From Parcubacteria group bacterium (GTDB taxonomy: Bacteria > Patescibacteriota > Minisyncoccia > UBA10092), in NCBI GenBank assembly GCA_016186325.1, contig JACPLW010000001.1, positions 187 through 64,186 on the forward strand: a stretch of 64,000 nucleotides of DNA, in the 5' to 3' direction. Under the pieces are notes generated by a model. It was not told the DNA's origin. It did no database searches and saw nothing but the letters and a program-made list of their open reading frames with translations. Numbering within the stretch: position 1 is the first letter of the stretch; every line of letters begins with the position of its first letter. Both the position numbers and the translations under genes were made by a program. Shown in pieces: positions 7,340-64,000 of the stretch.

Positions 7340-7687
7340 ATGCTTGTAATAAGATTGCAAAAAGTCGGGAAAAAACATACTGCCACCTTCAGGGTTGTGG
7401 TAACTCAAAAAACTGCCGCCGCGAAGCGGAAATATTTGGAGTTGCTCGGCAATGTTAATCGAAAAACCAAAGCGGTGAGTTTGAACAAAGAAAGAATTTT
7501 ATATTGGATTTCAAAAGGCGCCCAGCCCTCTGACACAATTCATAATTTATTAGTTTCACAAAGTATAATTTCCGGCGCTAAAAAACCGGTTCATAAAAAA
7601 TCAAAAAAAGAAGTGGCTAAAACAGAGGTAAAATTAGAGGCGGCGCTGGCTGAAACTCCAGTTGAAACGCCGGAAGTAGTATCTTGA
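7340..7687 (+). CDS. rpsP: 30S ribosomal protein S16
   Basis: MLVIRLQKVGKKHTATFRVVV is a typical S16 N-terminus, followed by a C-terminal Lys/Ala-rich extension. Confidence 0.85.
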   Translation: MLVIRLQKVGKKHTATFRVVVTQKTAAAKRKYLELLGNVNRKTKAVSLNKERILYWISKGAQPSDTIHNLLVSQSIISGAKKPVHKKSKKEVAKTEVKLEAALAETPVETPEVVS

Positions 7688-7715
7688 CCCCGCCCTTTGA
7701 GCTCAAAGGGCGGGG
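7688..7715 (+). terminator. intrinsic terminator after rpsP
   Basis: Hairpin CCCCGCCCTTTGAGCTCAAAGGGCGGGG. Confidence 0.5.
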
Positions 7716-7744
7716 TTGACGGATTTTTGTGTTTCCGTTATACT
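7716..7744 (+). promoter_or_regulatory. sigma70-like promoter (TTGACG-17 nt-TATACT)
   Basis: Near-consensus -35 and -10 hexamers with a 17-nt spacer, upstream of the KH protein gene. Confidence 0.5.
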
Positions 7745-7825
7745 ATATGGCAATTAGTAGTTTGCCCTAATTTTACAGAGGGGCTTGGTCGACTACTCTA
7801 AATCTTAAATAAGTTATTCAAAGAA

Positions 7826-8149
7826 ATGACTAATACATCGGTTGATCAGGAGTTTCTTGAATACCTTGTGAAATCAATTGTTGATAATCCTAATGATGTC
7901 AAAATTGATCGCAGGGTAGATGAAATGGGCGTCCTCTTAAACCTTAAAGTAAATCCGGAAGATATGGGTATGCTTATCGGTCGAGAAGGCTCAACCGCTA
8001 AAGCTATCCGAACCCTTCTTCGCATCGTGGGCGCTCGCAACAACGCGCGTGTCAATCTGAAGATAGAGGAACCGGAAGGCGGAGCTCGTCCCAGAAAAGA
8101 AAGAACTCAAACAATGGATGAGGTTGTGGAAGATTTGAAACAGCTTTAA
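7826..8149 (+). CDS. KH domain RNA-binding protein (YlqC/UPF0109 family)
   Basis: 107 aa. The GMLIGREGSTAKAIRTLL KH motif, in the rpsP-adjacent position typical of this family. Confidence 0.7.
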   Translation: MTNTSVDQEFLEYLVKSIVDNPNDVKIDRRVDEMGVLLNLKVNPEDMGMLIGREGSTAKAIRTLLRIVGARNNARVNLKIEEPEGGARPRKERTQTMDEVVEDLKQL

Positions 8150-8270
8150 TCCGAAAAAAACAATCCCGCGCAGTTGCGGGGTTGTTTTTTTATTTGATTT
8201 TAATGGCTTTTAGGGTTATATAGTTTATAAAAGTCTTGGTATCTTAAAAACTTAATAGGAGCAGGCAAAA

Positions 8271-10493
8271 TTGGGAAGGAAGTGGATGAAATTGTTAGTC
8301 ATTTTATGCTGTTTTACGGTAATTTTTGGTTCTACAGGTTATTTGGTTTTTTGGTACTATTTTGACTATAAAGATGGTGATTTACCAGACGTTCTGGCCC
8401 TTAGGGATTATAAGTTTAATTTGACCACTATTGTTCGGGATGACGGTGGAGAAATAATCGATAAATTCAAAGTTGAGGATCGGGTTTATATTTCATTCCA
8501 TTCGGTACCGGTAGCTGTTTTGTTGGCAACGGTATCGGCAGAAGATAAAAATTTCTTTGAGGGACGCTTAATTTATGGCATTGATTTTACGGGAGTTGTA
8601 AGAGCGGCTTTTAAAAATATAATTGCCGGCAAAGTAATTGCCGGCGGTTCAACTATTTCCCAGCAAACTGCCAAGTTAATTTGGTTGAATAACGAAAAAA
8701 CATTCAAAAGAAAGTTTAAAGAAGCGCGACTCGCTTATAGGATGGAAAAGTATTTATCCGACGAACTGATTTTTGAAATTTACATTAACCTAGTTTATTT
8801 TGGCCATGGCAAGTACGGCATTGTTTCCGCTTCGGAATTTTATTTTAGTAAACAGCCGTCAGAGTTGACGTTTGATGAAGCTGCCATGTTAGCCGGGCTT
8901 ATTAAGTGGCCTTATCAATTTTCGCCTATTGTCAATAAAAAAATTGCAACCAGCCGGCGCAATATGATTTTAAGCAGGATGATGAATAATGGTTTTATCA
9001 AGTATGGCGAGTATATCGCACTTACAGAAAAACCCGTTGTTTTAAGCATTAAAAGTATTGATCCGAAAGCTCCGTATCTTTCAAACTTTTTTATGGATGA
9101 ACTTCATCGTCTCGGTTACAGCAAAGTGGTAAATCAAGGCTTGAATGTAAAGACCTCAATTAATTCTTCTTTCCAGCTAATTGCAAGTGAAGCTCTAAGC
9201 AAGGGGTTGAAAGCTTATGATAAGAGACACGAAAAGCGTCTTGTTCTCTACAATATTTTTTCCGAATATAAGTTAGAATCCATTGAAGATTTTAAATCAG
9301 AGTCATGGAACGGTGAACTTGGCATTGAAAGCACTGTCGATGGTTTGGTTATTGAAGTTGACAGCTCTTTTGTAGTGTTAAAAATTGGGAACGAGACAGC
9401 AACTATTACTGCTAAATCGCTTCCCAATATCCAGAACGGTATCGCGGATTTTAAAAGGGTATTCAAAGTAGGCGACGTGGTAATGGTTAAAATTACCGGC
9501 GTTAACGCTAGTAATGATTTTATTGTTGAGATTGTTCAGCCAGAGGCGCAAGGAGCGGTAGTAATTTTAGAAGTTACAACCGGCGCGATAAAAGCAGTTG
9601 TTGGCGGCCGGGATTTCAAGGTCAGTAAGTATAATAGAGCGATGCAGGCCGAAAGACAGCCTGGCTCGGCTTTCAAACCGTTTGTTTATGGCGCTTATTT
9701 TGAAAAGTATCCGGATAAAGATTTGGAAAGCCATGTTTTGGATACTCCAATTTGTTTTAAAACCGGCAATCCTAAAAAGCCAAAATGGTGCCCCAAGAAT
9801 TACGAAGAGAAATCTTTACCGCCGTTTATGGGCTCGATTCCGATTAAAACTGCCATCGCGCGGTCTCGAAATGTGGCCGCCGTTCACGCGGCTAAAGAAG
9901 TTGGGATTAATAATGTGGTGGATTTAGCCCGCAGCATGGGTATTGCAAGCGATCTGCCTCGTTATCTTCCGACTGCCATCGGTGCCGCCGATGTAAAAGT
10001 AATTGATATGGCTAATGCCTACTCCACGCTTTTTAGGCAGGGAATTTATAAACCATATTGGTTTATAAATTCAATTACCGATAGAAACGGTTCAACGAAA
10101 AACTTAGAAACTATAGAAGAAAAACAAGCATTAAGCACTGAATCGGCAAATAAAATTTTGGGAGCAATGCGATGGGTAGTCTTGGCTGGTACGGCCCGTT
10201 CGGCTTCAAAAGAATTGCCCTTTGCGACGGCTGGTAAAACCGGAACGACCAATAACTTTACCGATGCTTGGTTTGTAGGCGGCTCGCCAAAGTATGTTGT
10301 CGCTGTGTGGATTGGCTTCGACCGAAAATCTATACCGCTAGTAAGTAGAGAAAGTTATTTTAAAGAAACCGGCGGTTCAGTAGCTCTTCCGATTTTTATT
10401 GAGATTATGAAAGAAATTTATAAGATCCGGCCGCCCGATTTATTTCCGGAAGAGATTGAGAATATAATTTTAGAGAAAAATGAAGATAAATAA
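8271..10493 (+). CDS. mrcA: penicillin-binding protein 1A (bifunctional transglycosylase/transpeptidase)
   Basis: 740 aa. GT51 motifs EDKNFF, GGSTISQQ, RKFKEA, and a transpeptidase SAFKP motif. Confidence 0.8.
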   Translation: MGRKWMKLLVILCCFTVIFGSTGYLVFWYYFDYKDGDLPDVLALRDYKFNLTTIVRDDGGEIIDKFKVEDRVYISFHSVPVAVLLATVSAEDKNFFEGRLIYGIDFTGVVRAAFKNIIAGKVIAGGSTISQQTAKLIWLNNEKTFKRKFKEARLAYRMEKYLSDELIFEIYINLVYFGHGKYGIVSASEFYFSKQPSELTFDEAAMLAGLIKWPYQFSPIVNKKIATSRRNMILSRMMNNGFIKYGEYIALTEKPVVLSIKSIDPKAPYLSNFFMDELHRLGYSKVVNQGLNVKTSINSSFQLIASEALSKGLKAYDKRHEKRLVLYNIFSEYKLESIEDFKSESWNGELGIESTVDGLVIEVDSSFVVLKIGNETATITAKSLPNIQNGIADFKRVFKVGDVVMVKITGVNASNDFIVEIVQPEAQGAVVILEVTTGAIKAVVGGRDFKVSKYNRAMQAERQPGSAFKPFVYGAYFEKYPDKDLESHVLDTPICFKTGNPKKPKWCPKNYEEKSLPPFMGSIPIKTAIARSRNVAAVHAAKEVGINNVVDLARSMGIASDLPRYLPTAIGAADVKVIDMANAYSTLFRQGIYKPYWFINSITDRNGSTKNLETIEEKQALSTESANKILGAMRWVVLAGTARSASKELPFATAGKTGTTNNFTDAWFVGGSPKYVVAVWIGFDRKSIPLVSRESYFKETGGSVALPIFIEIMKEIYKIRPPDLFPEEIENIILEKNEDK

Positions 10494-10501
10494 TTTAGAT
10501 A

Positions 10502-10519
10502 CCCCCAATTGGGGGTTTT
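10502..10519 (+). terminator. intrinsic terminator after PBP1A
   Basis: CCCCCAATTGGGGG followed by TTTT. Confidence 0.6.
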
Positions 10520-10554
10520 GATTTTTTATGAAATAAAACTTAGAATTGTTTTAC

Positions 10555-10585
10555 CTCGCCGAATCCGCCAGTTGGCGGAGAAGGC
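10555..10585. repeat. 31-bp palindrome-containing element, copy 1 (identical inverted copy at 19107-19137)
   Basis: CTCGCCGAATCCGCCAGTTGGCGGAGAAGGC, with a nested CCGCC-AGTT-GGCGG hairpin. The reverse complement is present at 19107-19137. Confidence 0.7.
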
Positions 10586-10597
10586 GGGCAAAAATTT

Positions 10598-11306
10598 ATG
10601 CAATTCGATATTATAACTATTTTTCCAAATATCTTTAGATTTTATTTCAACGAGAGCATAATTTTGCGCGCCCAAAAATATCTTTAGATTTTATTTCAAC
10701 GAGAGCATAATTTTGCGCGCCCAAAAATCGGGGAAAATAAAAATTAACATTGTTGATTTAAGGAAATTTTCAGCCGACAAAAATAAAAAGGTAGATGACA
10801 AGCCCTATGGCGGGGGACCCGGTATGGTTTTTAAAATTGAACCACTTATTAAAGCGATTTCAAATCTGAAACTGAAGGGCGGTAAAGAAAAACTTATTTT
10901 ATTTTCACCTAGCGGAAAACAATTCAGTTCCAAAATGGCCACAGAGTGGGCTAAAAAATATAATCGGATAATAATGGTTGCCGGCCATTACGAAGGAGTA
11001 GACGAAAGAATTAAAAAAATTTTTAAGATGGAAGAAATTTCAATCGGGCCATATATTTTAACCGGCGGAGAACTACCGGCAATGATTGTTATTGATTCGG
11101 TTTCGCGCCATATTCCGGGAGTTTTGGGGAAAAACGAGTCGCTTGAAGAAAAACGTTTTGGCGCTGGTGTTCCGGTTTTCACCCGTCCGGAAGTTATTAA
11201 ATATAAAAATAAAAAATACATTGTTCCAAAAGTTCTTCTTTCCGGAGATCACAAAAAAATAGAGGAATGGAGAAAAAAGCATCAAAAAAGCGATTTGACT
11301 TACTAA
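10598..11306 (+). pseudogene. trmD: tRNA (guanine37-N1)-methyltransferase TrmD, frameshifted by a 49-bp perfect tandem duplication
   Basis: The 5' frame MQFDIITIFPNIFRFYFNESIILRAQKYL stops at 10685. Removing one 49-bp copy (10680-10728) restores the frame into ...AQKSGKIKINIVDL..., matching the TrmD fold. The track ORF 10713..11306 uses a TTG start. Confidence 0.55.
10631..10728 (+). repeat. perfect 2 x 49 bp tandem duplication inside trmD
   Basis: 10631-10679 equals 10680-10728 (ATCTTTAGATTTTATTTCAACGAGAGCATAATTTTGCGCGCCCAAAAAT). Confidence 0.9.
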
Positions 11307-11371
11307 TAGTGCTTGGATATACTCGCACTTATATAAGTATAGTTCTTTGAACACACCAACAGGAGTGTCTA

Positions 11372-11713
11372 ATGACTGAACTGCAAAAAACTAATGCGTT
11401 GCTTAGAGAACTTCTTCAGCTAATATATGTTCAGCATCAGTTCTTTATGTGGGCATTATCACCAGATCATTATGGGGCTTGGCTCAACAGAATGACGCTA
11501 GCATACCGACTTCAAAAACATCATGTCTGGACTGAAGAAGAATGGTCGATTTTGGTTAAGAAAGATTTTAAAGATGGATGTAAGCGATGGCCTCAGATGA
11601 AAGAAACCTGGAAGAAGCTCCGAAAGTATTATAGTCGCGATGTTGTGCGGTTTATGGACGAACTTTTCGTCTCTATGGATACGCCGCAAAAGAAAAGTAG
11701 AAAAAGAAAATAA
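11372..11713 (+). CDS. hypothetical protein
   Basis: 113-aa ORF with a basic C-terminus; no recognisable motifs. Confidence 0.3.
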   Translation: MTELQKTNALLRELLQLIYVQHQFFMWALSPDHYGAWLNRMTLAYRLQKHHVWTEEEWSILVKKDFKDGCKRWPQMKETWKKLRKYYSRDVVRFMDELFVSMDTPQKKSRKRK

Positions 11714-11876
11714 ATAACAGATACCCGTCTTATGGCGGTATTTATTTTATCTCAAAATCAGTAAAAAAGATTATATAATTTATGCCGGCAATTTAACCAC
11801 TTAATTTCCGATCGGTTGCAAAGTTGTAACTTTTGAAATATAGTATCTTTGTTAAACTTTAGTTAAATTTTTATTC

Positions 11877-12428
11877 ATGGAACGAATGGGATCAATGTCT
11901 AAAAAAGTCATGCTCCTTTTGATAGGGGGCGCTTCTTTAAGTTTAGCAAGAAGACCTGATCAATATTTTAAAATTGTCAAAAATATTGCTAAAGAATGGA
12001 AAAAGATTAATGAAAGAAATTTGAAACTGGCAATTAAAAATCTGTATAAATCAAAATTGATTGATTATAAGGAAAATCGCGATGGGACAGTTGCTATTGT
12101 TTTGACGGATAATGGAAGAAAAAAAATTCTAAAGTATGATTTAGATAAAATTCAAATAAAAAAACCCGTAAAATGGGATATGATGTGGAGAGTGGTAATT
12201 TTTGACATTCCGGAAGAGAAACGACAGGGAAGGATTGCATTAGCTGAAAAATTAAAAGAGCTTGGATTTTATCCTCTGCAAAAAAGCGTTTTTCTTTATC
12301 CGTATGAATGCAAAGACGAGATTGATTTTATAATAGAAATTTTCAATCTCTCACCGTATGTCAGATTTTTGAGGGTTAAAAATACCGATATTGATATAGA
12401 TCTAAAAGTTCGATTTCATTTGTCATAG
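11877..12428 (+). CDS. PaaX-like regulator: N-terminal wHTH-like region plus C-terminal Cas2/VapD-fold domain
   Basis: The C-terminal WRVVIFDIPEEKRQGRIALAEKLKELGFYPLQKSVFLYPYEC follows the Cas2-like pattern (VxxYDI..KRR......L...G.R.Q.SVF.C). No CRISPR array or cas1 nearby. Confidence 0.4.
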   Translation: MERMGSMSKKVMLLLIGGASLSLARRPDQYFKIVKNIAKEWKKINERNLKLAIKNLYKSKLIDYKENRDGTVAIVLTDNGRKKILKYDLDKIQIKKPVKWDMMWRVVIFDIPEEKRQGRIALAEKLKELGFYPLQKSVFLYPYECKDEIDFIIEIFNLSPYVRFLRVKNTDIDIDLKVRFHLS

Positions 12429-62922: not shown

Positions 62923-64000
62923 ATGTCTCAATATTATTTCACAAACGACGCGCCTACCGGAAACGACCCTTCAACTTGGGGTTGGAAGGGAGCATGGGAT
63001 GACGGCACCACCACTGCGGTTACCAAACGGCTTGGAGAGGCCATTGGAGCGGGGGGCTTTACATCAATAGGCACCGACGAAGGGACGAGTTCTGTTGCTG
63101 ATTTTGATATTGCTCTGGGCCGGTGGGTCTCCGACCCATTAAGTAATGCGGTCTCATTTGCCACCAATGATACCTGGCAGGCAATTTTTGGTGTGAAGGA
63201 ACAAAACCTCGCGGCTAATTTTGTTTCGCATGTTCATATCTGGATTTCCAATGGCGATGCCGACTCGGTCAAGTCAACATTGGTCACCGATGCTATTGCC
63301 AGTGCTACGCCTAATGATGCCGAGGAATGGCCAACAACGGCTTCTGGCACAGGCAACTTGTTTGCTAATAGCACCACCAACGCTCTTGCCGATGGGCTTT
63401 CGGCCGCCGCGGGAGACCGTATCATTGTTGAAGTCGGTTATCGAGCTCTAAATACCATAACCACTTCTTATGCCGGCACGATGTATTATGGCGGCGCTAC
63501 TGGCGCCGATTTGCAAGACGACAATGCGGGAGGCACCAATCCAGGATCAAACCCGGGTTGGATATCGTTTACTACAACTATACCAAGCCCTTCAGAAAGT
63601 CCTTCTGTCAGTCCTTCTTCTTCACCATCACTTAGTCCATCATCTTCCGAATCACCGTCCCTTTCGCCCTCGGCGTCGCTAAGCCCCTCAAGTTCCGTTT
63701 CTCCGTCTGAAGTGCCGCAATCTTCTTCCGAATCACCTTCGCTTTCACCGTCATCATCTGAATCACCGTCGCTAAGCCCTTCAGCATCTTTATCTCCATC
63801 CTCATCCGTTAGTCCTTCACTCTCGCCATCCAGTTCGCAGTCGCCATCGCTTAGTCCATCAGCTTCTCTATCGCCCTCAAGCTCCGCGTCGCCGTCTCTT
63901 AGCCCCTCAAGTTCTGAATCACCGTCACTCTCGCCATCAGCTTCTCTGTCTCCGTCGGCTTCTGAATCGCCATCGCTTTCACCATCGTCTAGCGAATCGC
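62923..64000 (+). CDS. Ser/Pro-rich tandem-repeat protein (3'-truncated by window end): ~220-aa N-terminal domain followed by SPSLSPSxSxSPS repeats
   Basis: Frame +1 from the ATG at 62923 is open to the window end (>358 codons) and absent from the ORF track. From ~63590 the DNA is a tandem 9/18/36-nt periodic repeat encoding ...SESPSLSPSASLSPSSSVSPS... Confidence 0.6.
   Translation, partial: MSQYYFTNDAPTGNDPSTWGWKGAWDDGTTTAVTKRLGEAIGAGGFTSIGTDEGTSSVADFDIALGRWVSDPLSNAVSFATNDTWQAIFGVKEQNLAANFVSHVHIWISNGDADSVKSTLVTDAIASATPNDAEEWPTTASGTGNLFANSTTNALADGLSAAAGDRIIVEVGYRALNTITTSYAGTMYYGGATGADLQDDNAGGTNPGSNPGWISFTTTIPSPSESPSVSPSSSPSLSPSSSESPSLSPSASLSPSSSVSPSEVPQSSSESPSLSPSSSESPSLSPSASLSPSSSVSPSLSPSSSQSPSLSPSASLSPSSSASPSLSPSSSESPSLSPSASLSPSASESPSLSPSSSES

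Follow-up and report, generated by a model that had tools for sequence, protein, structure and literature searches.

TrmD is essential in most bacteria (PMC6795141, PMC8643618). Two described systems come closest to a tandem duplication such as the one studied here. One is microhomology-mediated slippage, and the other is scaffold-join duplication during assembly. Chen et al. 2020, from the same laboratory as He et al. 2021, reported that local assembly errors are prominent with IDBA-UD, that overlapping flanks can remain as 'duplicate sequence' after scaffolding, and that incorrect numbers of repeats are frequent among local assembly errors (PMC7111523). In the groundwater study of He et al. 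2021, each filter was assembled by MEGAHIT 1.2.9 with default parameters, followed by IDBA-UD scaffolding (PMC7906910). A further described system to which the locus bears some resemblance is the +1 frameshift site of prfB, the gene for RF2. Here we analyse a 49-bp duplication within trmD of a Parcubacteria group bacterium, located in a stretch of 64,000 nucleotides (hereafter, the window). The duplication is a property of this single assembly or, at the most, of a subpopulation in which it is not fixed, and the trmD gene of the lineage is intact.

Direct comparison of the sequence revealed two identical blocks of 49 nt (10631-10679 and 10680-10728). This was in agreement with Tandem Repeats Finder (10627-10728, period 49, 2.1 copies, 100% matches, no indels) and confirms the perfect tandem duplication that had been reported in a preliminary description of this DNA. 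The identity at period 49 spans 53 nt, i.e. the 49-nt unit and 4 nt more (AAAT), which leaves five possible phases for the copy boundaries. In the leftmost phase, copy 1 (AAATATCTTTAGATTTTATTTCAACGAGAGCATAATTTTGCGCGCCCAA; trmD codons 11-27) occupies positions 10627-10675 and copy 2, with the same sequence, positions 10676-10724, both on the plus strand. They are followed by the additional AAAT at 10725-10728 (plus strand), which is also found as the first 4 nt of each copy and thus forms a microhomology at the duplication boundary. For a blunt join with a 49-nt period in this sequence, the empirical probability that the identity extends 4 nt or more into the flank is 2.3%. The junction between the copies is represented by the 30-mer TGCGCGCCCAAAAATATCTTTAGATTTTAT, and the single-copy allele is marked by CTATTTTTCCAAATATCTTTAG and GCGCGCCCAAAAATCGGGG, exactly one unit apart. 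The identity of 49 adjacent bases is beyond chance. The 64-kb window contains no other long perfect tandem repeat, and a scan of 89 further loci (633 kb in total), almost all of them trmD loci of Patescibacteria, yielded no perfect tandem duplication with a period of 20-400. There are no N bases in the window, and the copies abut directly. A 42-nt piece of the unit had 0 matches among JGI metagenome contigs, so no further independent copy was obtained there. Two imperfect tandem arrays with a period of 30 nt (68-76% matches) are located at the very end of the window (63730-63939) and may be a repetitive coding segment.

The consequence of the duplication for trmD is a split reading frame. From the native ATG, a 29-codon plus-strand ORF (10598-10687; MQFDIITIFPNIFRFYFNESIILRAQKYL, followed by the stop) encodes the conserved xFDIITIFP strand and terminates with a TAG at 10685-10687. 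This is within copy 2, as the preliminary description had stated. The remainder of trmD runs in the +1 frame up to position 11306. When one copy was deleted in silico, a continuous 219-aa ORF for full-length TrmD was obtained, which matches the TrmD equivalog models from end to end, so the earlier claim that removal of one copy restores the frame also holds. The accompanying statement of a trmD frameshift caused by the duplication is, for the sequence as deposited, literally correct; the annotation masks this frameshift with an ATC start. The trmD CDS as deposited (MBI2634937.1; 10680-11306, plus strand; 208 aa, MFRFYFNES...) begins at this non-canonical codon in copy 2 and lacks residues 1-11, including strand β1. 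Because its 208-aa product begins at ATC 10680 in copy 2, the deposited GenBank record itself carries the duplication. In a protein search, the single 100%-identical match was the 208-aa NCBI entry 'MAG: TrmD [Parcubacteria group bacterium]'. The accessions of the neighboring genes are consecutive (MBI2634934 to MBI2634938, then MBI2634941), with locus tags of the HYW79_ series. The longest conventional ORF in the 3' frame has a TTG start (10713-11306, plus strand; 197 aa) and covers TrmD model positions 24-210 only. The choice of the ATC start by the annotation pipeline absorbs the frameshift and makes it invisible in the protein database, and an N-terminally truncated TrmD (208 instead of 219 aa) is now in nr. 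Caution is advisable here, as scoring of gene loss or of protein N-termini in Patescibacteria from such bins could mislead.

Judging from its sequence, the restored gene encodes TrmD, a tRNA (guanine37-N1)-methyltransferase of the SPOUT class (PF01746, TIGR00088, NF000648), as a full-length equivalog. With NF000648, the restored 219-aa protein reached a score of 252.7 bits over model positions 1-210 of 221 (cutoff 220), and with TIGR00088 a score of 244.3 bits (cutoff 195); it also matched Pfam family PF01746. The scores of the 197-aa ORF of the two-copy sequence were 222.1 bits (NF000648) and 215.4 bits (TIGR00088). The alignment with solved TrmD structures (3ky7 with E = 6.7e-52, as well as 4mcb and 1uaj) begins at residue 1 of the restored protein. 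The core motifs YGGGPGMV, AGHYEGVDER, and LTGGELPAM are present, and the corresponding columns are invariant or nearly so in an alignment of 12 sequences. The xFDIITIFP strand is absent from both the deposited 208-aa CDS and the 197-aa ORF. Nowhere in the window sequence is it joined to the rest of the domain, which occurs only after removal of one copy or in the independent contig L001 described below. Eleven close homologues align over the N-terminus of the restored protein, and homologues at 68-83% identity have the common N-terminus xFDIITIFPxIFxSYFNESIIxRAQKSGKIKIN. Since the homologues have this same N-terminus, the restored junction (...RAQKSGKIK...) represents the ancestral state. In a scan of GTDB species representatives, TrmD is encoded from residue 1, 2 or 3 onward in all 80 of the 80 related loci that the scan yielded, and the best TrmD among the representatives scanned was 68% identical, with Patescibacteria and Azambacteria MAGs as the sources. 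An AlphaFold2 (AF2) model of the restored protein had a mean pLDDT of 64.6 (72-87 across the first 40 residues), with strand β1 predicted at residues 2-7 and helices at residues 10-17 and 20-28. According to this model, the duplicated codons 11-27 would correspond to the helical pair between β1 and β2, and any product begun in copy 2 is predicted to lack β1.

The gene order around trmD is GroEL, rpsP, a KH-domain protein, a class A penicillin-binding protein (PBP), trmD, a 113-aa hypothetical protein, and a PaaX-like protein. The upstream PBP, with transglycosylase and transpeptidase domains (8271-10493, plus strand), is identical in three Logan contigs (L087-L089). The downstream 113-aa hypothetical protein (MBI2634938.1, HYW79_00070; 11372-11713, plus strand) served as the handle for retrieval of the independent contig L001. 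In region 7340-11713, in which some of the neighboring ORFs were scanned, rimM and rplS were not seen adjoining trmD. The 183-aa protein encoded at 11877-12428 contains the PaaX central Cas2-like domain (PF20803, E = 8.5e-21), and its position is conserved in the closest long relative (L083, SRR8863434). In that relative (L083 1-4345), genes for an isochorismatase and NAPRTase lie between trmD and the 113/114-aa hypothetical protein; the window does not contain them. Several public MAG records (L005, OZ246416.1; L031; L078) with the titles 'uncultured Gammaproteobacteria bacterium' or 'Candidatus Saccharibacteria' encode a TrmD that is 55-67% identical to the Parcubacteria one. One of them is an 886-kb 'chromosome'; the organism labels of these records look unreliable.

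Searches for identical protein products led to Logan contigs of five runs (SRR12113383, 384, 420, 422, and 424). One of them, L001 (SRR12113422, 1212 nt), which was found through the exact product of the downstream 113-aa gene, is an exact substring of the window minus one copy. It spans 10559-11819, lacks copy 2 and is otherwise 100% identical, contains a single 49-nt unit, and has an uninterrupted trmD frame. The graph underlying Logan contigs has k = 31. L001 passes straight through the unit at this k, which indicates that the junction k-mers are absent or rare in SRR12113422. Seven other Logan contigs from the same five runs cover ∼12 kb more of the window and are 100% identical to it, except for one SNP in L002 and a spacer variant. 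The deposited sequence is therefore otherwise faithful, and the duplication is its one structural discrepancy. Exact searches for products of the two-copy contig (the 197-aa TTG ORF, a 201-aa edge-of-contig product, and the GenBank 208-aa protein) gave no matches in the index, which does not contain the NCBI contig itself, so this result carries little weight. The existence of an independent assembly of the same strain with one copy and an intact trmD means that the two-copy state is not fixed in the organism, and we hold it to be very probable that this state is not a fixed biological feature. The preliminary description had left a choice between a recent inactivating duplication, an assembly or slippage artefact, and a minority allele. 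This set is supported and narrowed by the single-copy, intact trmD in the independent assembly.

These data also bear on whether trmD could be a fixed pseudogene, its loss being offset by another trmD or a Trm5-type enzyme encoded elsewhere in the genome, or tolerated through a reduced, episymbiotic lifestyle. Patescibacteria lack many core functions, and the portion examined here is only 64 kb of the genome, both of which would leave room for such a scenario. Against it stand the intact allele in the same strain background, which L001 already points to as the majority form in its sample, the intact TrmD in 80/80 related loci, and the gene itself, which has no lesion besides the duplication and scores as a full-length TrmD equivalog; in addition, no second trmD is present within the 64-kb window. 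We regard a fixed pseudogene as highly improbable. Whether the duplication is an artefact or not, the frameshift says nothing on the dispensability of TrmD.

The sequence at the end of the 29-codon ORF, read as CUU UAG A (10682-10688, plus strand), is a candidate +1 slip site, which raises the question of whether a real two-copy allele could still yield active TrmD. In one route, tRNA-Leu would slip from CUU to UUU at 10682-10688 to produce a 235-aa TrmD with a 16-aa repeat of the helical pair. Alternatively, translation could reinitiate at ATC 10680 or TTG 10713, or the 29-aa peptide could complement the truncated protein. The 0-frame ORF indeed ends with CUU UAG A, the +1 frame is open to the trmD stop, and the duplicated segment corresponds to two AF2-predicted helices (residues 10-28), placed by the model between β1 and β2. 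Slipping of this kind could be self-regulating, as tRNA-Leu(CUN) is itself an m1G37 substrate and loss of m1G37 raises +1 frameshifting (PMC8384417). However, a Shine-Dalgarno-like stimulator is absent upstream of the CUU (upstream sequence CCCAAAAAUAU), the CUU UAG A is an accidental by-product of ATC TTT AGA being read out of frame, and nothing similar occurs in the relatives, all of which have an uninterrupted trmD. Moreover, the 100% identical single-copy allele shows that the structure is extremely young and not evolved, and the reinitiation products would lack the conserved β1 strand. Production of active TrmD from the two-copy allele by any of these routes is thus very unlikely. The narrower proposition of a genuine two-copy allele that abounds in one groundwater sample and is sustained by +1 frameshifting at CUU UAG A is extremely improbable. 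If it were true, a drop in TrmD would lead to less m1G37 on tRNA-Leu(CUN), more slipping, and restored TrmD synthesis, that is, to an accidental, newborn autoregulatory loop analogous to that of RF2/prfB.

The spacer between the PBP gene and trmD is variable among strains at positions 10513-10535, and the independent contigs break here. In two contigs (L087 from SRR12113384 and L088 from SRR12113420), an 82-nt insertion follows position 10513 (positions 2391-2472 of both contigs, as determined by comparison of the Logan contigs), together with the substitutions G10515A and A10535T. A third contig (L089, from SRR12113424 and one further sample) ends exactly at 10513, which indicates that both spacer alleles co-occur in those samples. 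The two alleles have different terminator-like hairpins (ACCCCCAATTGGGGGTTTT in the window and AACTCGTTCGC-TAAA-GCGAACGAGTTTTT in the insertion allele). The possibility that the insertion is a repeated mobile element was considered; it is single-copy in all DNA examined and hence not obviously a mobile repeat. The spacer variation is located 92-114 nt upstream of copy 1. The last variant base, 10535, plus 140 gives 10675, which is the last base of copy 1 in the leftmost phase. Few strain-variant sites occur in the ∼13 kb available for comparison, which makes an accidental origin of this spacing, found post hoc, unlikely.

The spacing suggests how the second copy may have arisen during assembly. 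The default k list of MEGAHIT ends at k = 141, and the IDBA scaffolder probably trims contig ends by an estimated (negative) distance. With two co-occurring strains that differ in the spacer just upstream of trmD, the last differing base being 10535, the k = 141 graph would contain a strain-specific contig ending at 10675 (10535 + 140) and a shared downstream contig beginning at 10536, with an overlap of 140 nt (k-1) between them. An underestimate of the negative gap by the scaffolder, with ∼91 nt trimmed rather than the full 140, would leave 49 nt of the overlap in duplicate. The outcome predicted by this scheme is a perfect identity of the copies with no Ns and an end of copy 1 at 10675, which matches the window. 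The scheme suggests that the join happened through a mis-estimated negative gap. Two other assembly origins were set aside. In a simple k-mer overlap, the period would equal k or k-1, and 49 and 53 are not in the MEGAHIT k list; only the end of copy 1 fits k-1 = 140. In a two-variant model, a second strain variant at 10816-10820 would create an exact contig overlap of 49 nt; it implies a change at a non-synonymous position (codon base 1 or 2) in the invariant GGGPG motif, and the mis-estimated negative gap was adopted instead.

The trmD gene of the organism is thus an ordinary one, intact and single-copy. We consider it somewhat more probable than not that the second 49-bp copy is a scaffold-join artefact of the bin assembly. 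The MBI26... accessions and the neighboring runs SRR12113420-424 suggest that the bin belongs to the California groundwater project of He et al. 2021 (PRJNA640378); another paper cites run SRR12113421 as the origin of a genome bin from the groundwater that this study sampled at Modesto, California. Through this probable link, the artefact is favored by a pipeline that includes a scaffolder known for duplicated overlaps. It is also favored by the coincidence, noticed post hoc, of the duplication boundary with the predicted contig end at 10675, and by the low a priori likelihood of a high-frequency null allele of the essential trmD. Further points in its favor are the single-copy contig L001, the agreement of the other Logan contigs with the window, the strain heterogeneity shortly before copy 1, and the intact TrmD N-terminus of the relatives. 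Several observations count against it. Junction k-mers are not made up by de Bruijn assemblers, which means that an error of this kind must arise at scaffolding. In the form documented by Chen et al., Ns mark the join, and the window is free of Ns. At ∼10374-10513, where the same bubble has its other join, no error is seen. The MAG and the single-copy contig may stem from different samples. Finally, the 4-nt AAAT microhomology is typical of polymerase slippage.

This last observation leads to the possibility of a real but non-fixed mutation, in which replication slippage between two AAAT sequences at a distance of 49 nt gave rise to the second copy of codons 11-27 in a portion of the cells. 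Such an allele, a null or severe hypomorph of trmD, would have been abundant enough in one filter sample to assemble, and would coexist with the intact allele or be in the course of being purged in its favor. Besides the perfect head-to-tail arrangement of the copies with microhomology at their boundary, this explanation is supported by the rule that every k-mer of a de Bruijn contig must occur in the reads, by a population that is visibly heterogeneous at the trmD locus, and by a single-copy allele with 100% identical flanks, as would be expected of a very recent polymorphism. MEGAHIT prunes paths below ∼20% of the local depth. To be assembled, the allele would therefore have had to make up much of the population, a frequency difficult to reconcile with a codon-27 frameshift in a mostly essential gene. 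Furthermore, none of the indexed assemblies, among which the NCBI contig itself is not included, contains a contig with a two-copy product, and the exact 140-nt spacing to the nearest strain variant would have no biological reason. Taken together, we regard a real slippage allele as a serious alternative, though less likely than the artefact. If the duplication were real DNA at high frequency, it would constitute a rare natural near-null trmD allele persisting in a population, which the evidence does not favor.

When the locus is compared with the described systems, the restored 219-aa protein corresponds to known TrmD as a full-length equivalog. The deposited gene differs from it in being split into a 29-codon 5' ORF and a 3' ORF without the conserved strand at the N-terminus. 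The resemblance to prfB (+1 site CUU UGA C) consists of a CUU followed by a 0-frame stop and of a +1 frame that leads into a functional protein. However, the trmD site has no stimulator, is not conserved in relatives, and was made by the duplication itself, so this is a resemblance only and not membership. With classic microhomology-mediated slippage duplications, the locus shares perfect head-to-tail copies, a short direct repeat (AAAT), a length that is not a multiple of 3, and polymorphism relative to a single-copy allele. However, an allele of this type would be expected to remain rare when the gene is essential, whereas here it is the assembled consensus. In the scaffold-join duplications that Chen et al. 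described in IDBA-UD and CLC scaffolds (PMC7111523), overlapping contig ends are left unmerged. The trmD duplication is similar in that the same scaffolder was probably used, a perfect two-copy repeat is located at the expected graph break (variant + k-1), and an independent assembly lacks the duplication. It differs in that the flanks in their cases are separated by Ns, whereas the copies here abut, and in the 4-nt microhomology, which is unexpected for a blunt join.
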